Shown here: piece by piece, positions 1 through 37,503 of the stretch
Position numbering within the stretch: the stretch's first letter is position 1
Layout: each line of letters opens with the position of its first letter
Origin: a virus
Lineage: Duplodnaviria; Heunggongvirae; Uroviricota; Caudoviricetes
IMG/VR virus record: IMGVR_UViG_2513237219_000007
Location: 1 to 37,503 of that record
Reading direction: 5' to 3' (one strand)
DNA length: 37,503 nucleotides
The notes under the pieces: model-generated
What the model was told of the DNA's origin: nothing
Database searches by the model: none
The model's input: only the letters and a program-made list of their open reading frames with translations
Translations under genes and position numbers: made by a program

Positions 1-483
1 ATGACGAAGAAAAAAGCACATAAACCTGGTTCAGCGACCATCGCGCTTAACAAGCGCGCCCGTCACGAATACTTTATCGAAGAAGAGTTCGAAGCGGGAC
101 TTGCCCTGCAAGGCTGGGAAGTTAAATCCCTGCGCGCAGGAAAAGCCAATATCAGCGACAGCTACGTCCTTCTGCGTGACGGAGAGGCATTTCTGTTTGG
201 CGCTAACATCACGCCAATGGCCGTGGCCTCCACGCATGTGGTGTGCGATCCTACCCGTACCCGCAAGTTACTTCTCAACCAGCGCGAACTGGACTCATTG
301 TACGGTCGCGTCAATCGAGAAGGCTATACCGTAGTGGCGCTCTCCCTGTACTGGAAAAATGCCTGGTGCAAAGTGAAAATCGGCGTCGCCAAAGGTAAGA
401 AACAGCACGATAAACGTTCAGATATCAAAGAGCGCGAATGGCAGGTGGATAAAGCACGTATCATGAAAAACGCCCACCGTTAA
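1..483 (+). CDS. smpB: SsrA-binding protein SmpB
   Basis: 160-aa ORF ([30 protein letters not shown]...) recognised as enterobacterial SmpB; located immediately upstream of tmRNA as in E. coli. Confidence 0.95.
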
Positions 484-697: not shown

Positions 698-1060
698 GGG
701 GCTGATTCTGGATTCGACGGGATTTGCGAAACCCAAGGTGCATGCCGAGGGGCGGTTGGCCTCGTAAAAAGCCGCAAAAAATAGTCGCAAACGACGAAAA
801 CTACGCTTTAGCAGCTTAATAACCTGCTTAGAGCCCTCTCTCCCTAGCCTCCGCTCTTAGGACGGGGATCAAGAGAGGTCAAACCCAAAAGAGATCGCGT
901 GGAAGCCCTGCCTGGGGTTGAAGCGTTAAAACTTAATCAGGCTAGTTTGTTAGTGGCGTGTCCGTCCGCAGCTGGCAAGCGAATGTAAAGACTGACTAAG
1001 CATGTAGTACCGAGGATGTAGGAATTTCGGACGCGGGTTCAACTCCCGCCAGCTCCACCA
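698..1060 (+). ncRNA. ssrA: tmRNA (transfer-messenger RNA, SsrA), 363 nt
   Basis: Starts GGGGCTGATTCTGGATTCGACGGG; internal tag reading frame GCAAACGACGAAAACTACGCTTTAGCAGCTTAA (787..819, ANDENYALAA-stop); tRNA-like 3' end GGTTCAACTCCCGCCAGCTCCACCA. Confidence 0.95.
1016..1060 (+). repeat. attL: 45-bp ssrA 3'-end core shared with attR
   Basis: ATGTAGGAATTTCGGACGCGGGTTCAACTCCCGCCAGCTCCACCA occurs identically at 36064..36108. Confidence 0.85.
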
Positions 1061-1070
1061 AATAAATCAA

Positions 1071-1099
1071 GGGGTTACGTAAAAGCGTAGCCCCTTTTT
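1071..1099 (+). terminator. Rho-independent terminator after ssrA
   Basis: Hairpin GGGGTTACG-loop-CGTAGCCCC (one G-U pair) followed by TTTTTCTTT. Confidence 0.6.
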
Positions 1100-1118
1100 C
1101 TTTGGTAGTGGCGGCAAA

Positions 1119-1157
1119 ATGGCGACAGACTTTTGCGTCCATCTTGCCTGTCGCCAT
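1119..1157. promoter_or_regulatory. Perfect 10-bp inverted repeat upstream of BRCT-domain gene (candidate operator or hairpin)
   Basis: ATGGCGACAG (1119..1128) and CTGTCGCCAT (1148..1157) separated by 19 nt; AAGAGG RBS follows before the ATG at 1184. Confidence 0.35.
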
Positions 1158-1183
1158 CTTGAAATCATGCAAAGAGGTTTCAC

Positions 1184-1666
1184 ATGGAAGAACTTCACTT
1201 TGTTTACATCAATGCAAATGGTCGTATCGGAGTTCACTCAATACAGAGCATCAGTTATAGCGAAAATCATATACAGGGCATTTGTAAGAACACCGATCGA
1301 ATAAAAACCTTCCGAAAAGACCGCATTCTTAAACAGTACGATTCACCAGAACAAGCCATTCAGGAATGCGCGTCATTCCTCCCCGAAAACTACTCACACC
1401 TCACTAAGCAGTCTGGTCCGAAAAAAAATACATTCGATGTGTGTTTCACCGGATTTAAGAAAGCAGATAAAGAAAGATTGGTTGATAAGGCGAATGAACA
1501 AGGATTAACGGTAAGAACCTCTGTAACCCAAAGCCTTCAGATGCTCTGTTGCGGTTACAATGCAGGCCCATCAAAAGTATCGGCAGCCAGGATGAAAGGC
1601 ACAATCATCATAGATGAGCCTGGCTTTATACATTTTCTTGAAACGGGTGAGATCCCAGATGAATAA
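1184..1666 (+). CDS. BRCT-domain protein (accessory gene between attL and ogr)
   Basis: 160-aa ORF; C-terminal half CFTGF..ERL..EQG..V..SVT..CCG..G.SKV..A..G.II.E..F..FL matches the BRCT fold pattern of NAD-ligase C-termini; N-terminal about 80 aa unassigned; own RBS. Confidence 0.6.
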   Translation: MEELHFVYINANGRIGVHSIQSISYSENHIQGICKNTDRIKTFRKDRILKQYDSPEQAIQECASFLPENYSHLTKQSGPKKNTFDVCFTGFKKADKERLVDKANEQGLTVRTSVTQSLQMLCCGYNAGPSKVSAARMKGTIIIDEPGFIHFLETGEIPDE

Positions 1667-1692
1667 AAACCTGCCGTAGCAGGTTCTCTTTC

Positions 1693-1911
1693 TCAAAAAT
1701 TCATATGCCCCTGACCACCTGGCAATGGATGTGGAGGAGCAGTAGCAATCAGTGCGGGTGTCACAATAAACCGGACCACTGTTTCATGGGTAACAAAAGT
1801 GCTCCCGCAGTTAATATTTTGGCACTGGCAGTAACGCTCTTTGGTGCTTTCAGTTACTTGAAAACTGCTCCTTGTGTGTGCCGCATGACCACACTTTGGA
1901 CAATTCATCAT
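1693..1911 (-). CDS. ogr: Ogr/Delta-type zinc-finger late-gene transcriptional activator
   Basis: MNCPKCGHAAHTRSSFQVTESTKERYCQCQNINCGSTF resembles P2 Ogr (CxxC..CxxxxC); likely start at the internal Met near 1908..1911, giving about 71 aa. Confidence 0.85.
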   Translation of the reverse strand: MMNCPKCGHAAHTRSSFQVTESTKERYCQCQNINCGSTFVTHETVVRFIVTPALIATAPPHPLPGGQGHMNF

Positions 1912-8959: not shown

Positions 8960-9532
8960 TCAGGGGGATTCATTGATCTTATTTGCCGGAAATTTTCTAT
9001 AAATGGTAGAAACGCCTACATCAAAAATCAGTGCAATACGCTGTATTGATTCTCCGGCCTCGAGTAAACGCCCAATCTGTGCCCACTGTTCGGTGGTCAA
9101 CTTAGGACGGCGTCCACCTACTCTGCCTTTGGCACGAGCTGCAGCCAGCCCTGCCCTGGTACGTTCAACTATCAGTTCGCGTTCCATTTCAGCCAGGGCA
9201 CCCATGACATGAAAAAAGAAACGGCCCATTGGGGTACTGGTATCAATACTGTCAGTCAGGCTTCTGAAATTCACACCACGCTGGCGCAACTCTTCTATCA
9301 GCGTAACAAGATGCCGCATACTGCGCCCCAACCTGTCCAGCTTCCAGACAACCAGCGTGTCTCCTGCCGATAGTGTCCTGAGTAGTTTTTTCAGCCCCGG
9401 TCTGTCGGACTTAGTGCCACTGATTTTGTCCTCAAAAATCTGCTCACATCCCGCGCAGTTCAGTGCATTACGTTGCAAATCGGTGTTCTGGTCATTTGTT
9501 GACACGCGTACATAGCCAATAAGCATGATCAT
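8960..9532 (-). CDS. Serine-recombinase DNA invertase (Hin/Gin/Cin/Pin family)
   Basis: 190-aa ORF, MLIGYVRVSTNDQNTDLQ... with catalytic Ser motif and C-terminal HTH; adjacent to the tail-fibre inversion site. Confidence 0.9.
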   Translation of the reverse strand: MIMLIGYVRVSTNDQNTDLQRNALNCAGCEQIFEDKISGTKSDRPGLKKLLRTLSAGDTLVVWKLDRLGRSMRHLVTLIEELRQRGVNFRSLTDSIDTSTPMGRFFFHVMGALAEMERELIVERTRAGLAAARAKGRVGGRRPKLTTEQWAQIGRLLEAGESIQRIALIFDVGVSTIYRKFPANKINESP

Positions 9533-9581
9533 CCCCCTGAATAAAAACCGGAGATGATGCCAGTTAGCTGTTACCTCTGCA

Positions 9582-9607
9582 TTTTCTTAAACGTTGGTTT
9601 GGGAGAA
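9582..9607. repeat. Left inversion crossover site (hix/gix-like, 26 bp)
   Basis: TTTTCTTAAACG TT GGTTTGGGAGAA; its reverse complement shares 14 bp (TTCTCCCAAACCAA) with the site at 11413..11438. Confidence 0.65.
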
Positions 9608-9952
9608 GCGGCGAAAAGGGATGTGGGCACAGGAGATAATCAGATACCGGATATGGGAGCATTCGCTTCTGGTTCGGGATGGTTCAGGCTACCAGGTGGA
9701 TATATTGTTCAGTTTGGCACTTTTTCAGGAAACACGACCCGCTTTATCAGTGGACACTTCCCTATACCATTCCCTAATCAGCCGATGGTTTCAGTCAGTG
9801 TTATGTCTGATGCCGTTCAGTCAGACCCGTCGAATCCTGCCCCGCAGGTTTTGTCTGTAAATTTTGAACATATCAGTAATTCAGCGTGGCGTGTGGCAAC
9901 CAGTGATATCTCACAGCAATACAGATTCAGTTATATTTCGATAGGACGGTAG
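9594..9952 (+). CDS. Silent alternative tail-fibre C-terminal cassette (expressed only after inversion)
   Basis: Open frame running from the crossover core; begins with the same GLGE codons as the active H variable part; followed by its own tail-fibre assembly gene. Confidence 0.65.
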
Positions 9953-9954
9953 AA

Positions 9955-10395
9955 ATGCAGAAATATATTTTCAGTGCCGATAAAAATGCGTTTTTCCCTG
10001 TGGAGCTTAAAATCGCTTATCAGGAATCCGGCGAATGGCCCGATGATGGAATCGAAATTGACGACACTGTTGCCGCCGAATTTATGAAGGAAGCACCAGA
10101 AGGAAAATACAGAGGTGTCATCGACGGAATGCCTGCATGGATTGATATTCCACCGCCAACTCATGAGGAACAAATTGCCGCAGCCGAACTGGAAAAGCAG
10201 CAATTGATTAATCAGGTCAACGAATACATAAACAGTAAGCAATGGCCTGGTAAAGCGGCGATTGGTCGCCTGAAAGGTGAGGAACTGGCGCAATATAATT
10301 TGTGGCTGGATTATCTGGACACACTGGAACTGGTCGATACTTCCGGTGCGCCAGATATTGAATGGCCTACGCCTCCGGCAGTTCAGGCCAGATGA
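9955..10395 (+). CDS. Tail-fibre assembly protein (alternative, partner of silent cassette)
   Basis: 146-aa ORF with tail-fibre-assembly-like C-terminus (DTSGAPDIEWPTPP); convergent with the active tfa gene. Confidence 0.75.
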   Translation: MQKYIFSADKNAFFPVELKIAYQESGEWPDDGIEIDDTVAAEFMKEAPEGKYRGVIDGMPAWIDIPPPTHEEQIAAAELEKQQLINQVNEYINSKQWPGKAAIGRLKGEELAQYNLWLDYLDTLELVDTSGAPDIEWPTPPAVQAR

Positions 10396-10960
10396 CATCC
10401 GGCGCAGTGCTGGTATCTGTTACCGTCACCGCGTCAATATAATCCAGCACGGCGTTAAGTCGGGTTGTTTCTGCCTGCGTCAGCTTCCGCCCGGCCTGTA
10501 ATTTCAGTTGAATCAGACTGATGGAAGCCATTGCAGCATCAATCAGCGACTGGCGCTGTGCTTCTGCCGCGTCTACTGCGGCACTATGCTGTGCCTCAGT
10601 ATCTGTCACCCATTTCTCACCATCCCATTTATCGTATGGCGTTAACGGTGAAAGCGTGACATAACCGTCTTTGATGGCACCGATATAATCCACTGTAACA
10701 GCTGCGCCATTTTCGATTGAGTAAACAGTCTCATTGCGGTGGTCTTCTTCATGGCTCCATCCCTTACCCGTAAATACTGCCACTTTCCCCGGAATGTATT
10801 CGCCCGGGTCAATACCAGTGGAACAGGCGGGCATGCTTACGCCAGTATTAATATATTCATCAGACCAGCCCGTATATTCAGACGTTACTGCATCATAATA
10901 AAAACAACGCATATCACCCGGCACTGTAGCCAGCCCATTTTCATCAAAAACAGGTTTCAT
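10367..10960 (-). CDS. Tail-fibre assembly protein gpG (active orientation)
   Basis: 197-aa ORF, P2 G-like; start shares one base with the H stop (TAATG). Confidence 0.8.
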   Translation of the reverse strand: MKPVFDENGLATVPGDMRCFYYDAVTSEYTGWSDEYINTGVSMPACSTGIDPGEYIPGKVAVFTGKGWSHEEDHRNETVYSIENGAAVTVDYIGAIKDGYVTLSPLTPYDKWDGEKWVTDTEAQHSAAVDAAEAQRQSLIDAAMASISLIQLKLQAGRKLTQAETTRLNAVLDYIDAVTVTDTSTAPDVIWPELPEA

Positions 10961-23765: not shown

Positions 23766-25175
23766 TTACTCATCTACTCTGATTTTTTGTTTTTTATTAT
23801 TTTGAGTTAAGACATTTATGGTAATAGATGTATACGGATGAAAGTCAGGAACTATACTTTTAACCTCTCCATTTTCAAGAAAATGATGTGCTATTGAAGG
23901 AAATAAATCAGGATCTACAGGATATTTAGCATTAGGATTATGATACATATTTAAACCTTCTGCCCATGTTTCTGTAATATCGCCTTCTTTCACTTCAAAA
24001 CTAAATGCTGCTGGATATAATGCCTCTGGGTCATGATCATGGCAGTAACCACTCCTAAATAATCTAAGGTCACTTCTTCCAAAACCAGCCAGTTTTCCCA
24101 TCCGATTAAACTTCGATATAGTACCACTATTAGAACTAAGGACGGCCGAAATATTTTCAGACTCATCCAAGAAGAAAAAGCCTGAAGGAATTTCCTTTTT
24201 CTCAAATTGATGCGATATAATTTTCTTAGTTGCTAAACTGTAACATCCATCTTCAGATTTAACATGCTCATAGCGAATACCATAAAGATACTGCCAAAGT
24301 GCACTATGGGACCAAATCATAGAGTTTGGTTCATGAAAATCAGCAATTGCGAAAATTAAAGGATTCCCCTTAACATGTTCTAGATCCCAGTATCGAGTTT
24401 TCTTTTTCAGTTTAGAATAGAGAGAACTTCCAAATTTAATCGGCATATAATTCTCTATTTTCTCTAGCAATTCTTCCTTACTTTTAGGTTCTGATAGCAT
24501 TTCAGATGATTGATTAATATCATTCCCTGTTGGATTAACCGTTACAGCTTCAATGCAAATAGTATTACCATACTTACGTGCCACATAATCAGGGGCATTA
24601 AACTGCCTATCTAGCCAAAAGTGTTCCTCTCGTAAATATGCGAAAAGATATAACTCCCATAGCCGGGCATCAAAACCTGTTGTCTGAAACTGCTCTATAA
24701 AATTCCCGTCGACATCCTCAAAATGATTCATCATTTCCTTGATTATCCCTGTTGCAGGCGACCAGTTCGCGTATTTACCAAATAATGAAAAATGATGATG
24801 AAGTTTATCTGGTGTAACTATAGGTGTGAATAAATCCATTGCTTTATAAGTTTCATCACCTTGTGGAAATACTTTTACGTTTAATTTAGTATGCTTCCGC
24901 ATTAATTTCTTTAGTTTTGCTCGTGCAGAATTCATTTCTGAAACACTAGTAAATAGGTCAATACATCTATATCTCCCACTTAAGTCTCTTGCTAAAACAA
25001 TACCGCTATAATCTTCATCGATTTGATCCAATAATAGTGCCCCTAGCAGGAACTCTCTCGGACTACAGTACCACTCAAACTCATAGCCTAAAAGTTCAGT
25101 ATTTGGCATTCTGGTCCAATCAACAAAAGCATTAAACCTCTCTTTACTCATTTTTTTTATATCAAGAAAAGACAT
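23766..25175 (-). CDS. Hypothetical protein, AT-rich cargo gene between portal gene and putative cos (candidate defence/accessory gene)
   Basis: 469-aa ORF with strongly AT-rich codon usage (roughly one-third GC by eye) against a GC-rich phage backbone; GAGG RBS; no family recognised by me. Confidence 0.6.
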   Translation of the reverse strand: MSFLDIKKMSKERFNAFVDWTRMPNTELLGYEFEWYCSPREFLLGALLLDQIDEDYSGIVLARDLSGRYRCIDLFTSVSEMNSARAKLKKLMRKHTKLNVKVFPQGDETYKAMDLFTPIVTPDKLHHHFSLFGKYANWSPATGIIKEMMNHFEDVDGNFIEQFQTTGFDARLWELYLFAYLREEHFWLDRQFNAPDYVARKYGNTICIEAVTVNPTGNDINQSSEMLSEPKSKEELLEKIENYMPIKFGSSLYSKLKKKTRYWDLEHVKGNPLIFAIADFHEPNSMIWSHSALWQYLYGIRYEHVKSEDGCYSLATKKIISHQFEKKEIPSGFFFLDESENISAVLSSNSGTISKFNRMGKLAGFGRSDLRLFRSGYCHDHDPEALYPAAFSFEVKEGDITETWAEGLNMYHNPNAKYPVDPDLFPSIAHHFLENGEVKSIVPDFHPYTSITINVLTQNNKKQKIRVDE

Positions 25176-25496: not shown

Positions 25497-25730
25497 TTAA
25501 TGCAGCCAGCTGTCGTCTTCCCACACCTTCTGCATAATTTTCATCACTTGTTTTCTTTCTTCGTCCAGTTGCAGTCCGGTTAGTTCCACACCGTTAGAGC
25601 TACCTTTGCGAATGCGAATTACCGTTTTGGGATACAGGGGGCGCAGATTGCGGTAAAGCTCGGATTCAAGGGCGTCCAGGGTAGACTGGCTAATCTTCTG
25701 CTCTTTATCGATCATTATTTCAATGCGCAT
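25497..25730 (-). CDS. DinI-like domain ORF (probable C-terminal part of a tum-like SOS antirepressor)
   Basis: MRIEIMIDKEQKISQSTLDALESELYRNLRPLYPKTVIRIRKG...WEDDSWL resembles E. coli DinI; coordinates start at the internal Met. Confidence 0.75.
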   Translation of the reverse strand: MRIEIMIDKEQKISQSTLDALESELYRNLRPLYPKTVIRIRKGSSNGVELTGLQLDEERKQVMKIMQKVWEDDSWLH

Positions 25731-25740
25731 AAAAGTCACC

Positions 25741-25929
25741 TCAGCTGATGACATCCATTGAGCGGTTGTATTCGTGGGTTCTGATTTTTGCCATGAGTTC
25801 ATCAGTCAATTCAGAAACCCACTGCAGAGCCAGCCCCTTCTCTTCATCACTACACTCACTAGCCGCTACAAGCTTAAGAAAAAAATCAATGCGCTGGAGC
25901 TTCAAAGACTCCAAAAAATAGTCCTGCAT
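25741..25929 (-). CDS. tum-like N-terminal ORF, first gene of the LexA-boxed operon (possibly fused to the DinI-like ORF in the intact gene)
   Basis: 62-aa ORF from an internal ATG preceded by AGGAGG; LexA box lies about 40 bp upstream; overlaps the DinI-like frame. Confidence 0.55.
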   Translation of the reverse strand: MQDYFLESLKLQRIDFFLKLVAASECSDEEKGLALQWVSELTDELMAKIRTHEYNRSMDVIS

Positions 25930-31949: not shown

Positions 31950-32065
31950 AGTGCAGTATCTCTTAGTTTGGTTTCGTTTTATCTTGTTTTATGTGGTTTG
32001 GTTTTGCTTTTCAAACCATGAATGGATATTAAGATCACTTTTTATATGCGTCAAGAGGTTTGATT
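31950..32065. promoter_or_regulatory. Immunity switch region (lytic pR and CI operators expected)
   Basis: AT-rich 116-bp region between divergent apl and cI containing repeated TGGTTTGG / TTTCAAACCA motifs. Confidence 0.4.
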
Positions 32066-32698
32066 ATGAGTTTAATCAAGGCGGGGAATGATAGTGGTGG
32101 GCGCGATGCGATTAATAGGCTTATTAAGGCTTACAACTTCAGCTCACGACAGCAGCTCTGCGAACATCTGGAAGTATCAAAAAGCACTATGGCTAACAGA
32201 TACTTAAGGGATAGCTTTCCTGCCGAATGGGTAATCCAATGTGCCCTTGAAACAGGAGCTTCCCTTCTATGGCTGGCTACTGGTCAAGGAGATATGTATG
32301 CGTGTGAGAACGAAGAAACAAATCTCAAAAATGAACCTCCCGTCACTGTAAGACCACTTTCTAAGATCGTTGCTCCTAGCATCAAACGTGTTGAACTGAA
32401 GAACGGCGAACTGCAGCCAAGTGATGAAATTCTTCTTGATAGCAGCCTGCTCGATGGTGACTCATCCAACGCTTTATTTGTTAAAACAGCTAATGATAGC
32501 TTTGTAGTGGATACGTCTGTTAAACAAGTCAGTAATGGCTTCTGGTTAGTCGATATGGACGGAGTTAAAAGCATCGTCAAAATTGCGCGCATACCCGGAA
32601 ACAAAATAGTAGTTAACCAAGATGACACTTCATTTGAATGTTCTGTAGATGATGTGGAAGTCGTAGGACGTGCAGTCAAAGTAATCAAGAACCTCTAA
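32066..32698 (+). CDS. cI: CI immunity repressor (186 CI-type)
   Basis: About 210 aa; N-terminal HTH (CALETGASLLWLATGQG) and C-terminal LWLVDMDG...FEC..DD...GRAVKV, as in 186 CI; AAGAGG RBS before the ATG at 32066. Confidence 0.8.
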   Translation: MSLIKAGNDSGGRDAINRLIKAYNFSSRQQLCEHLEVSKSTMANRYLRDSFPAEWVIQCALETGASLLWLATGQGDMYACENEETNLKNEPPVTVRPLSKIVAPSIKRVELKNGELQPSDEILLDSSLLDGDSSNALFVKTANDSFVVDTSVKQVSNGFWLVDMDGVKSIVKIARIPGNKIVVNQDDTSFECSVDDVEVVGRAVKVIKNL

Positions 32699-32701
32699 CT
32701 T

Positions 32702-33742
32702 ATGACCATCAGAAAACAGCCGAACGGAAAATGGTTGTGTGAGTGCTATCCCAATGGACGCAATGGTAAGCGCGTGCGTAAGCAATTTGCTACCAAAGGC
32801 GAAGCCATTGCGTTTGAAAGCTTCACAATGGAAGAAGTGAACAAAAAACCATGGCTAGGGGAAAAGGAAGATCGGCGACATCTATCAGAATTAATTGAGC
32901 TGTGGTATTCCCTGTATGGTCAAACACTCGCAGACCCCAAGCGCCTCATGGCGAAACTTAGAATTATCTGTAATGGTCTAGGCGATCCCATCGCCTCAGA
33001 ACTGACAGCTGGTGAGTTTACGAAATACCGCGAAGCACGGTTAAAAGGTGAAGTACGAAATGAAGATGGCACGCTTATGTCGCCCGTTAAGCCCCGCACG
33101 GTAAATCTTGAACAGCGCAACCTATCATCTGTTTTTGGTACACTGAAAAAGCTGGGCCACTGGTCAGCCCCCAACCCGCTTGCTGGGCTGCCAACATTTA
33201 AAATTGCTGAGGGTGAATTGGCGTTCCTGACCCCGGAAGAAATTAAACGTCTGCTGGATGCCTGTGCTGATTCTCAAAGCCCCAGTCTGCTGATGATTGC
33301 AAAAATATGCTTGGCCACCGGCGCACGCTGGAGCGAAGCCGAAAACCTACAGAGTCATCAGGTATCAAAATACCGTATCACTTATACCAAGACTAAAGGA
33401 AAGAAAAACCGAACAGTGCCTATTTCAAAGGATTTATATGAAGAACTGCCTAAGAATAGGGGAAAATTATTTACACCTTGTAGGAAAGCTTTTGAACGTG
33501 CGGTAAAACGAGCTGGTATCGAGCTACCAGAAGGGCAATGCACACACGTATTACGACATACATTTGCAAGTCACTTTATGATGAATGGCGGAAACATACT
33601 GGTGCTGCGCGATATTCTGGGCCATGTCGATATAAAAATGACAATGATTTACGCCCACTTCGCTCCCGACCATCTGGAAGATGCTGTAACCAAAAATCCT
33701 CTTGCTAACCTTGGATGGAGAAAATTAGAAAGTGCTTGTTAA
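32702..33742 (+). CDS. int: Tyrosine integrase (P2/186 Int family)
   Basis: 346-aa ORF with the catalytic region HVLRHTFASHFMMNGGNILVLRDILGHVDIKMTMIYAH. Confidence 0.9.
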   Translation: MTIRKQPNGKWLCECYPNGRNGKRVRKQFATKGEAIAFESFTMEEVNKKPWLGEKEDRRHLSELIELWYSLYGQTLADPKRLMAKLRIICNGLGDPIASELTAGEFTKYREARLKGEVRNEDGTLMSPVKPRTVNLEQRNLSSVFGTLKKLGHWSAPNPLAGLPTFKIAEGELAFLTPEEIKRLLDACADSQSPSLLMIAKICLATGARWSEAENLQSHQVSKYRITYTKTKGKKNRTVPISKDLYEELPKNRGKLFTPCRKAFERAVKRAGIELPEGQCTHVLRHTFASHFMMNGGNILVLRDILGHVDIKMTMIYAHFAPDHLEDAVTKNPLANLGWRKLESAC

Positions 33743-33898
33743 TAACTATATCCAACAATACCCATGGATATCGTACTTACTTATCATAATATATTTTTTA
33801 TATATATGCCTTGAATTATATCTATGCGTATCAAAAAAAGGCTTTAACATGGATGAAAGGCCATTAACAAGTCAATACTTATTTAAACAATCACTTAG

Positions 33899-35093
<1,195 letters not shown>

Positions 35094-36063
35094 CTTAGGA
35101 TTCCTGTATTTTCAGCGATATACTTTGGTATATTTTCCTGGCTTGGACATTCCCCTCAATTTGATAGTGAGGGCTTTAATAATTTCATTGCAATTAGCAA
35201 GCTTCCTATCGCCTTACTTTCTTTGTCCATACCATTTGTTGCTGTCGTAGCAAACATACACCGCACAGTTCAAACAAACCGACAAATTGAGGAAACCAAG
35301 CAAAAGAATCTATCTGATAGCTACTATAGCCATCTAAAGTTCGTTACTGATTATTTCACCAATTTACCTAACAAAACCATTAAACGCGAACGTCATTATG
35401 GTACTAAAGAGATAAGTTATAAAATAAACTACCCAATACATCTATATAGATATATTTTCATAAATAGCTCACCAGAGAAGGGACGGCCTAAAAATACAGA
35501 TAAAGAGTACATACGTGAAGTAAATAATCACTGGGTTGATATACTAAAAAACCTAGAGAAGATACATTCATCTAATCGTGGCTCTCAGTTTGCCGAAGTT
35601 TTAATCCGTCAAATGCAATCTCTTCATTCAATAGAAAAACACTTATCCGAACTTAATCGAATGCTTTGCCTAACTCCCATGGAGTTAAATGAACATGCAA
35701 CTTTATACTTTGATGGATATGAAATGATTACTAACTTCATGTCCAGCATTGAACTTGGCGATACAATTGAAACCTACTTCAAATTTACCATTGATATTCT
35801 TGATATTACCGATAATTTCCTTTCATTCAAGGATGATGGCTCGTCTGGGCAAATCATTATACTAGCAAGATTACTGAAAGATAATAATCCAGCTATCTTT
35901 GATGAAATTGTAACAAACAAAGGGAAGGCTCAACCTTCGTTGACCTACAATGGCGACAGATTGGCGACAGAACATTAAAAATGAGTAAAACGGACAAACA
36001 CAAGATAATACTAACTTACTGATTTTAAACGCAAGTTAATGTTTTTGCTATAGTGAAAATGGT

Positions 36064-36108
36064 ATGTAGGAATTTCGGACGCGGGTTCAACTCCCGCCAG
36101 CTCCACCA
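36064..36108 (+). repeat. attR: displaced ssrA 3'-end copy (45 bp)
   Basis: Identical to 1016..1060; also serves as the att junction for the downstream P4-type-integrase element. Confidence 0.85.
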
Positions 36109-36144: not shown

Positions 36145-36176
36145 GCCCGCACAGCACAAGCTCTGCGGGCTTTTTT
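36145..36176 (+). terminator. Rho-independent terminator (probably the ancestral ssrA terminator)
   Basis: GCCCGCA-loop-TGCGGGC followed by TTTTTT. Confidence 0.6.
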
Positions 36177-36273
36177 ACGTCTATTGTCGTCCAGTGAGAA
36201 TTGCTGAGAACTATCACTTATGGCACCCTGAATGGGACCCACTAAGAAGGGTCCAAAAACCGAGGGTCCCAAA

Positions 36274-37503
36274 ATGGCAAAAATCGCTAAGAAGCTCACT
36301 GACACTGAAATCAAAAGCACCAAGCCAGCCGACAAAGAAATCAACTTGTTTGACGGAGATGGTTTGATACTACGAATCGCTCCCCTCTCGAAAGGAGGAA
36401 AGAAGAATTGGTATTTCAGGTATGCAGTGCCAGTCAGTAAAAAAAGAACCAAAATGAGCCTTGGGACATATCCTCACCTTACACTGGCAAGAGCCAGAGC
36501 CTTACGAGATGAATACCTTTCCTTGCTTGCTAATGGCATTGATCCCCAAGTTCATAACAACGATAAAGCTAATGCCTTAAAGAATGCTACTGAACACACT
36601 CTCCAAGCCGTGGCAAGGAAATGGTTGGATGAGAAGGTAAAGACCTCAGGTATCTCACAAGACCATGCAGCAGACATCTGGCGCAGCTTAGAGAGAAATG
36701 TCTTTCCTGGCCTGGGTAATGTCCCTATCAATGAGATCCGACCTAAGATCTTAAAACAACACCTTGATCCTATTGAGCAACGAGGCGTATTGGAAACTCT
36801 ACGCCGCATCATTTCACGTCTGAATGAAATCTTCCGGTGGGCAGCCACTGAAGAACTTATTGAGTTCAATCCGGCTGACAACCTTGGTCAAAGATTCAGT
36901 AAACCAAAAAAGCAAAATATGCCTGCCCTTCCCCCAAGCGAATTGCCAAGGTTTATGGAATCTTTGACGAATGCGTCAATCCGGCTGGAAACACGTATGC
37001 TAATTGAATGGCAATTGTTGACATGGGTTCGTCCGGGTGAAGCCGTTCGCGCAAGGTGGTCTGATATTGATACAACCAACAACATTTGGAACATTCCTGC
37101 TGATTTTATGAAAATGAAAAAGCCTCACAAAGTTCCTTTGAGTAAAGAAGCTTTGCACATCCTTGAATTAATGAAATCAATAAGTGGGCATAGAGAATGG
37201 GTTTTCCCCAGCATTAAAGCGCCTCTTAATCATATGCATGAACAAACAGCCAACGCAGCTATTATCCGAATGGGGTTTGGAGGCGAACTTGTAGCTCACG
37301 GTATGCGTTCGATTGCAAGAACAGCGGCAGAGGAGTCTGGTAAGTTCAGAGCTGAAGTTCTTGAGGCAGCACTCGCCCACTCTAAAAAAGATGAAATTAT
37401 CGCAGCATACAATCGTGCAGAATATCTGATAGAACGACAGAGTTTGATGCAATGGTGGAGTGATTACGTTCAAACTCAAAGAGCTAAAGCTATCGCTGCT
37501 TGA
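36274..37503 (+). CDS. intA: P4-type tyrosine integrase (IntA-like) of a second ssrA-associated island
   Basis: MAKIAKKLTDTEIKSTKPADKEINLFDGDGLILRIAP...KRTKMSLGTYPHLTLARARALRDEYL resembles the E. coli CP4-57 IntA N-terminus; GAGGGT RBS; stop at the window end. Confidence 0.85.
   Translation: MAKIAKKLTDTEIKSTKPADKEINLFDGDGLILRIAPLSKGGKKNWYFRYAVPVSKKRTKMSLGTYPHLTLARARALRDEYLSLLANGIDPQVHNNDKANALKNATEHTLQAVARKWLDEKVKTSGISQDHAADIWRSLERNVFPGLGNVPINEIRPKILKQHLDPIEQRGVLETLRRIISRLNEIFRWAATEELIEFNPADNLGQRFSKPKKQNMPALPPSELPRFMESLTNASIRLETRMLIEWQLLTWVRPGEAVRARWSDIDTTNNIWNIPADFMKMKKPHKVPLSKEALHILELMKSISGHREWVFPSIKAPLNHMHEQTANAAIIRMGFGGELVAHGMRSIARTAAEESGKFRAEVLEAALAHSKKDEIIAAYNRAEYLIERQSLMQWWSDYVQTQRAKAIAA

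Follow-up and report, generated by a model that had tools for sequence, protein, structure and literature searches.

A WYL-BRCT gene beside the attachment site of an ssrA-integrated P2-family prophage and predicted integrase arm-type sites in the inverted repeat upstream of it

Introduction

What is the role of a small gene that stands between the attachment site and the late-gene activator gene ogr of a P2-family prophage, and does the perfect inverted repeat in front of it control its expression? These questions are raised by a viral sequence of 37,503 nucleotides (IMG/VR record IMGVR_UViG_2513237219_000007), the whole of which was analysed and is referred to as the window in the following. 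The original prediction for this locus had proposed an accessory gene outside the P2 core, a BRCT domain in the C-terminal half of its product, an operator in the inverted repeat and, as a possible function, anti-defence or interference with DNA repair. Defence hotspots have been described on either side of int, one in K139-like relatives of P2, where it separates cI from int (PMC9122126), and a minor one in P2 itself, in the interval from int to att (PMC13586616). We show here that the gene product combines a BRCT domain with a WYL domain, as predicted from profiles and from a structural model respectively, and that the inverted repeat corresponds, by comparison with related attachment sites, to two predicted integrase arm-type sites.

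Results

The prophage and its attachment site

The window harbours a prophage of approximately 35 kb, a Fels-2/186-like member of the P2 family, which is bracketed by two copies of a 45-nt att core (Table 1) and is shown to be integrated in the 3' end of ssrA, the 3'-terminal 45 nt of which (1016-1060) equal the att core and are phage-supplied after integration. Likewise phage-borne is the intrinsic terminator that now ends ssrA; it is found also in Fels-2, Cartapus and Citrobacter relatives and, in the circular phage, would in addition stop read-through from int. Counted from the ssrA-proximal junction, the gene under study is the first of the prophage; it is designated the WYL-BRCT gene after the two domains of its product and has the tmRNA gene on one side and ogr followed by gpD on the other, where P2-family genes (ogr, D, U, T) occupy the minus strand from 1693 onward. 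Elsewhere in the prophage, a DinI-like gene, possibly of the Tum type, is located at 25497-25802.

Table 1. Features of the window around the WYL-BRCT gene, the lysogeny genes and the two prophage junctions
Feature	Position	Strand	Basis or remark
smpB	1-483		window start
ssrA (tmRNA)	698..1060	+	ARAGORN; Rfam RF00023, 295.8 bits
att core, ssrA-proximal copy	1016-1060	+	direct repeat of 36064-36108
IHF-consensus match	1065..1077	+	AATCAAGGGGTTA; just right of core, overlapping the terminator stem
Intrinsic terminator, phage-borne, now ending ssrA	1069..1096	+	12-bp stem followed by TTTCTTT
P'1, predicted arm-type site	1109..1117	+	TGGCGGCAA; part of the conserved GTGGCGGCAAAATGGCG(A/G)CAG block
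P'2, predicted arm-type site	1120..1128	+	exact copy of TGGCGACAG; left half of inverted repeat; present in Fels-2
P'3, predicted arm-type site	1148..1156	-	exact inverted copy of TGGCGACAG; right half of inverted repeat
Ribosome-binding site	1173..1177	+	AGAGG, 6 nt 5' of ATG
WYL-BRCT protein gene	1184..1666	+	ATG start, 160 aa
WYL domain (predicted)	1184-1408		residues 1-75
Flexible linker			residues 76-83 between the two domains; residues 74-84 by the AlphaFold model
BRCT domain (predicted)	1433-1645		residues 84-154
Hairpin between convergent WYL-BRCT and ogr genes	1668..1685	.	likely bidirectional terminator
ogr (late-gene activator)	1693..1911	-	tblastn and annotation; 72-aa form annotated in relatives
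186-type CI repressor	32060..32698	+	Pfam Phage_CI_repr, Phage_CI_C; strand shared with WYL-BRCT gene
P2/186-type tyrosine integrase	32702..33742	+	Pfam Int_N, Phage_integrase; 93% identity to Fels-2 Int
P1-P2, predicted P-arm sites	35951..35970	+	TGGCGACAG twice, direct repeat, 11-bp register
IHF-consensus match	36012..36024	-	between P-arm sites and core
att core, second copy, int-proximal prophage junction	36064..36108	+	direct repeat of 1016-1060

An accessory gene under purifying selection

The 160-aa open reading frame proposed between the att site and ogr was recovered on the plus strand. Comparison with its orthologues, at about 70% amino acid identity, gave a pN of 0.15-0.25 and a pS of 0.74-0.86, the latter saturated, which shows, as judged from substitution patterns, the open reading frame to be a real coding gene under purifying selection that is conserved among those relatives that carry it. 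In the orthologues, AAGGTG takes the position of the ribosome-binding site, and the hairpin towards ogr is kept in Citrobacter, where it was called on both strands.

As had been suggested from its place outside the P2 core, the gene is an accessory one even among the phages of its own group: Fels-2 lacks it, and so do most of the relatives integrated in ssrA. Among 5426 complete E. coli genomes, the entire module was found in 171 and at least the initial part of the P' arm in 699. With 40-44%, the GC content of the gene compares with 53-58% in neighbouring tail genes, the usual signature of acquired cargo.

Domain architecture of the gene product

Homologues were collected in a search that gave 122 relatives, and 44 sequences were aligned. 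For the C-terminal half, the Pfam BRCT model PF00533 matched the window protein slightly below the gathering score (19.5 versus 21.3 bits, E=0.0011) and was matched at E<=0.01 by 33 of the 44 family members, with a best value of 2.1e-6. When compared with the PDB, the family profile found the BRCT domains of RFC1 (2.5e-5) and LigA (7.7e-5), and the modelled half displays the beta-alpha-beta-beta-alpha-beta-alpha fold. The phosphate-pocket subclass of BRCT domains is distinguished by (S/T)-G after beta1 and a lysine in alpha2, both of which are present in the family: Thr89, Gly90 and Lys131 are invariant in all 44 aligned sequences and, in the family-profile alignment, coincide with the FTG and AGPKK segments of RFC1. 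Matches of family members, profile matches and fold together bear out the earlier assignment of this half as a BRCT domain, and on the ground of these profiles and alignments it is shown to be of the LigA/RFC1 type, a subclass predicted to bind DNA.

Profile search and structure prediction of both halves disclosed a second domain at the N-terminus, which had been overlooked. In the AlphaFold model (pLDDT 91.9, pTM 0.52, the low pTM indicating the flexible linker between the halves), the first 75 residues build a five-stranded Sm-like barrel with two helices, and a fold search with this domain returned as top matches the WYL structures of PafBC, DriD, CapW and BrxR. The assignment required the fold search, since a sequence search of the PDB with the N-terminal profile gave nothing significant. 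The Pfam WYL model PF13280 is without a match in the window protein and is matched by 3 of the 44 family members, at best with 1.5e-5, as well as by 5 of 20 longer relatives tested. A TFRKDRI motif in the N-terminal domain, which we take to fit the WYL signature, is nearly invariant in the 44-sequence alignment. By its fold, the N-terminal half is a WYL domain with an Sm-like beta-barrel.

Beyond the two domains, no helix-turn-helix (HTH) was found in Pfam searches or in the model, in which the WYL barrel starts at residue 3, and no catalytic domain was found in the protein. The 20 longer family members, of up to 710 aa, gave only BRCT or WYL matches in Pfam, and their extra regions matched no recognized family. 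Likewise, the NCBIfam search with the window protein yielded local BRCT matches only, and in PADLOC-DB v2 there was no full-length match to any defence-system protein, the local matches being confined to the BRCT region (candidate PDC-S48, positions 335-406 of 411, E=1.8e-7; SspE, 0.0013).

The inverted repeat as a pair of predicted arm-type sites

The perfect inverted repeat reported upstream of the ribosome-binding site does exist, consisting of ATGGCGACAG at 1119-1128 and CTGTCGCCAT at 1148-1157, two arms of 10 bp around a spacer of 19 nt, which reach 14 nt if one mismatch is accepted. A perfect inverted repeat of this length is, taken alone, at chance frequency: three with a loop of up to 40 nt were observed in the window versus 2.3 +/- 1.8 in Markov shuffles. 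Its motif recurs, however, since exact TGGCGACAG stands four times in the 37.5 kb versus about 0.3 expected copies, at 1120(+), 1148(-), 35951(+) and 35962(+), and none of the four copies is farther than about 115 bp from the att core, two lying on each side once the prophage is circularised. Pure chance was rejected as a full account of the inverted repeat, as TGGCGACAG is confined to the surroundings of the att core.

P2-family integrases are known to use arm-type sites. On the joined attP of 254 bp, the order is P1-P2 (35951-35970), IHF site, core, IHF site, P'1-P'2 (1109-1128) and P'3 (1148-1156), and two of the five matches of the IHF pattern WATCARNNNNTTR in the window fall inside this segment. 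The P'1-P'2 block, GTGGCGGCAAAATGGCG(A/G)CAG, is kept throughout the ssrA-integrated relatives, whether or not they possess the WYL-BRCT gene. A survey of the interval between ogr and att found the interval empty in Fels-2 and occupied by the WYL-BRCT gene in the species that share the arrangement of the window (see below); without a gene there, Fels-2 nevertheless has TGGCGGCAAAATGGCGACAG right of the core, at the distance seen in the window, and, directly after the int stop codon, ATGGCGGCATTTTGGCGGCAG in the P arm, with position and register as in the window, its third P' copy being direct where P'3 of the window is inverted. On the intact attP of Cartapus, int and a RES-like cargo gene are followed by ATGGCGACATTTTGGCGGCAG, the core, TGGCGGCAAAATGGCGACAG, 19 nt, CTGTCGCCA and the WYL-BRCT gene.

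The outermost site, P'3, is lineage-specific and among ssrA-integrated relatives is restricted to the E. coli lineage; it is present also in Cartapus, has one mismatch in 10 bp in phage 500465-1 and is missing upstream of five orthologues, those of two Citrobacter species, Erwinia, Klebsiella and Tatumella. The Pantoea At-9b prophage, which uses a tRNA-Met site, has a different motif, with TGGCAGCA(A/G) present twice on the P' arm, the only arm compared; here, TGGCAGCAG is followed at the same 19-nt spacing by inverted CTGCTACCA, and the motif of the inverted repeat hence co-varies with the arm repeats. As copies flank the core, are kept in the absence of the gene and co-vary in Pantoea, with IHF matches within attP and no promoter at the site, the half-sites are predicted to be arm-type sites of the integrase, and the comparison shows the inverted repeat to comprise two such predicted sites, P'2 and P'3, instead of a gene-specific operator. 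The attP arm sites themselves are ordinary.

According to the original prediction, the repeat would be an operator, which in its most explicit form would be dedicated to the gene and be bound by a dimeric repressor, either the WYL-BRCT protein itself or CI, that controls the promoter of the gene. This we regard as improbable, even though the repeat is perfect over 10 bp, has a 19-nt spacer and is separated from the start codon by 26 nt, the Pantoea orthologue has the same upstream architecture and any existing promoter must overlap the repeat. The very same motif is found twice on the opposite attP arm, 35 kb away in the prophage, Fels-2 keeps the left half though it is devoid of the gene, and the right half is lost upstream of the orthologues of the five species named above; moreover, the repeat is as such no more frequent than by chance, the WYL-BRCT protein has no HTH, and a promoter-like site overlapping the repeat was not found. 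The scan for sigma-70-like promoters from the ssrA terminator to the start codon found none in the window, in Citrobacter or in Pantoea; reading by eye disclosed neither a P2 late-promoter element TGT-N12-ACA nor correctly spaced half-sites of the 186 CII type, and an Rfam search of 1061-1183 gave sub-threshold noise only. As no sigma-70-like promoter was found, lysogen expression of the att-proximal copy of the gene stays putative. Control through the repeat would instead be a side effect of integrase occupancy, which could affect the gene on account of the short distance between P'3 and the start codon. Repeats beside att sites should, as this case illustrates, be tested as integrase arm sites first, before they are called operators.

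Distribution and genomic context of the family

With E<=1e-3, an exhaustive profile search retrieved 2730 representatives, and with E<=1e-30 there were 200 clusters (50% identity); genomic context was surveyed in 48 species-level genomes or loci. Two arrangements recur. In the first, att is followed by the WYL-BRCT gene, which converges with ogr/D, as in the window, in 6 enterobacterial species and, from separate look-ups, in Citrobacter and Pantoea; on the circular map, as derived for the window and Cartapus, this reads cI, int, cargo, attP and the WYL-BRCT gene, convergent with ogr/D. In the second arrangement, the repressor gene is followed with operon-like gaps by the WYL-BRCT gene, in some cases cargo, and int, as in Yersinia, Xenorhabdus, Pectobacterium and Serratia, and also in Brenneria, Hafnia, Aeromonas, Parasalinivibrio and others; by sequence, the cargo between the gene and int looks like KAP-type NTPase and Doc/Fic toxin-antitoxin genes. 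Distant P2-like phages of Marinobacter, Wohlfahrtiimonas, Pasteurellaceae and Ignatzschineria have CI followed by the gene, convergent with D and with no int between, and in Pseudomonas an HTH-S24 repressor precedes it.

A same-strand repressor is located directly upstream in 15 of the 48 loci, with gaps of mostly <=65 bp, and in prophages the WYL-BRCT gene is always on the repressor (cI) strand. The two arrangements and the shared strand make the gene in each case the distal member of the lysogeny unit on the circular prophage map. This link to lysogeny is not universal, since about half of the 48 loci have no recognizable prophage neighbour by the markers used. Outside prophages, some family members adjoin Mrr-type, McrB-HNH-type or AbiGi-like genes.

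Discussion

A proposed role in the lysogen: recognition of DNA junctions or ends

Which function would fit a WYL-BRCT protein at the end of a lysogeny unit? With slightly better than even confidence, we favour a joint reading in which the protein is made in the lysogen and binds DNA junctions or ends, in exclusion or in damage sensing, and the repeat in front of its gene consists of integrase arm-type sites. Extrapolating from PafBC, DriD and CapW, the WYL domain would take the single-stranded part of a DNA structure, and the BRCT domain, by analogy with RFC1 and LigA, would take the 5'-phosphorylated duplex end or junction of the same structure, candidate targets being a gap, a resected end or the incoming linear end of a phage genome. 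In the absence of an enzyme domain, the protein would serve as a sensor or a blocker, through occupancy or through recruitment. The recurrent position at the end of a repressor/integrase unit is the reason to favour a function expressed in the lysogen over a lytic anti-defence function.

Within this joint reading, prophage-borne exclusion of, or defence against, other DNA appears most likely in view of the position of the gene and of the parallel to lambda rexAB and to the defence cargo at the cI-int hotspot, and the coupling of DNA damage to the prophage switch would be a close second. The defence role is argued from position, as an effector domain is lacking and the PADLOC matches are local to the BRCT region. 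A more far-reaching proposal, namely that WYL-BRCT proteins are a widespread class at the tail of prophage immunity operons that read single-stranded DNA/5'-phosphate junctions and convert them into superinfection exclusion or into a RecA/LexA-independent read-out of damage or infection, is put forward tentatively and is, in this breadth, rather unlikely.

Alternative functions

The best of the alternatives, in our estimate unlikely and a little less so than those that follow, is a DNA-damage sensor proper that tunes the prophage switch or excision, with the WYL domain detecting single-stranded DNA independently of RecA/LexA and the BRCT domain contacting CI, Int or a host repair protein. The tight and repeated coupling of the gene to three repressor families (186-type CI, HTH-S24 and HTH_3) speaks in its favour, as does the fact that the WYL domains of PafBC, DriD and CapW, top fold matches of the N-terminal half, respond to single-stranded DNA as a sign of damage. 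BRCT domains, in addition, are well known as protein-protein adaptors. The BRCT domain of this family belongs, however, to the DNA-binding LigA/RFC1 subtype, the DinI-like gene already present in the prophage would make a second damage input unneeded, and close relatives such as Fels-2 manage without the gene.

A factor acting during infection, as the original prediction had in mind with anti-defence or interference with repair, might cap phage DNA ends against RecBCD or compete with the BRCT domain of LigA, for which a LigA/RFC1-type BRCT domain with an intact T-G...K pocket would be suited; small BRCT or WYL proteins are encoded by lytic phages as well, and the position downstream of int on the circular genome might permit early reading. 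Yet the gene is on the lysogenic strand, in many phages directly behind the repressor and outside the early-lytic operon, its site is shared with defence-type cargo in repressor-linked phages, and competition with LigA would harm the lysogen, all of which leaves such a function with little probability, comparable to that of the operator discussed above.

Least credible, and refuted at the level of domains, is the identity that databases assign to the family, a DNA ligase or ligase subunit (phrog_2561 'DNA ligase' in PHROGs, E=2e-77 with the window protein; 'DNA ligase' in the phage 500465-1 record, NC_049342) or an exonuclease ('putative exonuclease' in Cartapus), as the similarity, including that to a T5-like ligase subunit B, is local and of the BRCT domain, TIGR00575 being aligned only at positions 549-650, the C-terminal BRCT of LigA, with 19.6 bits where the cut-off is 444, and the model of DEDDh exonucleases only at positions 229-307, with 26 bits where the cut-off is 389, and as 160 aa are too few for an adenylation, OB or nuclease domain. 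Of the NAD-dependent ligase, the adenylation (KxDG), OB, zinc-finger and HhH domains are all absent from the protein, which has two small non-catalytic domains only. The labels 'DNA ligase' and 'exonuclease' in phage databases are hence wrong for the WYL-BRCT family.

Relation to known systems

The attachment site conforms to attP of the lambda/P2/186 type in having a repeated 9-bp motif on either arm, some 50-115 bp away from the core, pairs in 11-bp register, IHF-consensus sites between arm and core and sites that are conserved with the integrase irrespective of neighbour genes. It differs in its motif, TGGCGRCAR, which is specific to the Fels-2/ssrA integrase group and marks predicted sites here. 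What had been taken for a regulatory element is explained by standard integrase biology.

With respect to genomic position, the WYL-BRCT gene resembles lambda rexAB and the cargo of the K139-like cI-int hotspot, as it is encoded on the repressor strand, is found directly downstream of the repressor, has a low GC content and is variably present, whereas the sequence of the protein resembles none of the exclusion or defence proteins tested.

With respect to its domains, the protein shares the WYL/Sm-like barrel and an FRxDRI-type motif with PafBC, DriD, CapW and BrxR, two of which, CapW and BrxR, are also associated with loci of phage defence. In contrast to these regulators, it has neither the N-terminal winged-HTH nor the C-terminal WCX domain, its partner domain being BRCT, and for lack of both it cannot be a transcription factor of their type. 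Its BRCT domain, in turn, is set apart from those of LigA and RFC1 (p140) by its occurrence in a stand-alone protein of 160 aa, without ligase or clamp-loader modules and fused to WYL.

A literature search found no paper on the WYL-BRCT family, and the locus offers a good lead into a widespread, uncharacterised family of prophage genes. Should it be true that the protein reads single-stranded DNA/5'-phosphate junctions, it would be a minimal, effector-less sensor at a place where prophages keep exclusion genes and would provide a new route to study how lysogens detect damage or invading DNA. Compared with the known systems, two known domains are found here in an unstudied arrangement, WYL and BRCT without HTH, that is, a WYL-type sensor joined to a different output domain.

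P' arm and terminator of ssrA

The present terminator of ssrA (1069-1096) is phage DNA belonging to the P' arm, the attP side right of the 45-nt att core at the ssrA end, and is common to the window and the related phages Fels-2 and Cartapus, while a different hairpin, near 36146-36175, lies downstream of the displaced core copy at 36064-36108. With window positions 1061-1700 as query, a match was obtained in 699 of 5426 complete E. coli genomes, most of the query being present in just 171, so that more than 500 genomes match it only partially. The sampled partial matches extend over the initial 49-68 nt of the P' arm (window 1061-1128); among the genomes sampled (loci L058 and L059), one carries a Fels-2-like prophage without the WYL-BRCT gene and another an isolated relic near ypjA/ypjC with a recombinase fragment alongside.

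Longer relatives of the WYL-BRCT protein

A domain of approximately 190-250 aa is fused to or precedes some relatives of the WYL-BRCT protein (loci L019, L020 and L055 from other genomes), among which are proteins of 348 and 404 aa. At L055 this domain has a gene of its own, which lies upstream of the gene for a 388-aa protein whose C-terminal BRCT domain is the sole part recognised. A Pfam search gave no match for the extra regions at any of the three loci.

Other regions of the window

Features of these regions
Feature	Coordinates	Strand	Position	Pfam search
Hin/Gin-type serine invertase	8960-9532		adjoins tail-fibre region	Resolvase, HTH_7
469-aa ORF	23766-25175	-	between portal/terminase genes and replication gene	no match
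DinI-like gene (possibly Tum-type)	25497-25802	-	adjoins 469-aa ORF	
IS5-family transposase	33995-34948		within int-to-P-arm cargo	DDE_Tnp_1, DUF772
251-aa ORF	35223-35978		within int-to-P-arm cargo; reaches into arm sites	no match
P4-type integrase, second in window	36232-37503	+		Arm-DNA-bind_3, Phage_int_M, Phage_integrase

Near the invertase, ORFs on opposite strands overlap (9931-10398 on the minus and 9955-10395 on the plus strand), an arrangement pointing to an invertible host-range segment within window 8960-10400. The 469-aa ORF occupies the classical P2 'old' defence hotspot. Two mobile elements are arranged in tandem at ssrA, since the P4-type integrase gene starts approximately 120 bp past the second att core copy.

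A low-GC cargo stretch (window 33743-35950) extends from the stop codon of int, the P2/186-type integrase gene, to the P-arm integrase sites, and in the equivalent position, between int and the P-arm sites, Cartapus encodes a RES-domain gene. This placement of cargo matches the int-att hotspot reported for P2 (PMC13586616).
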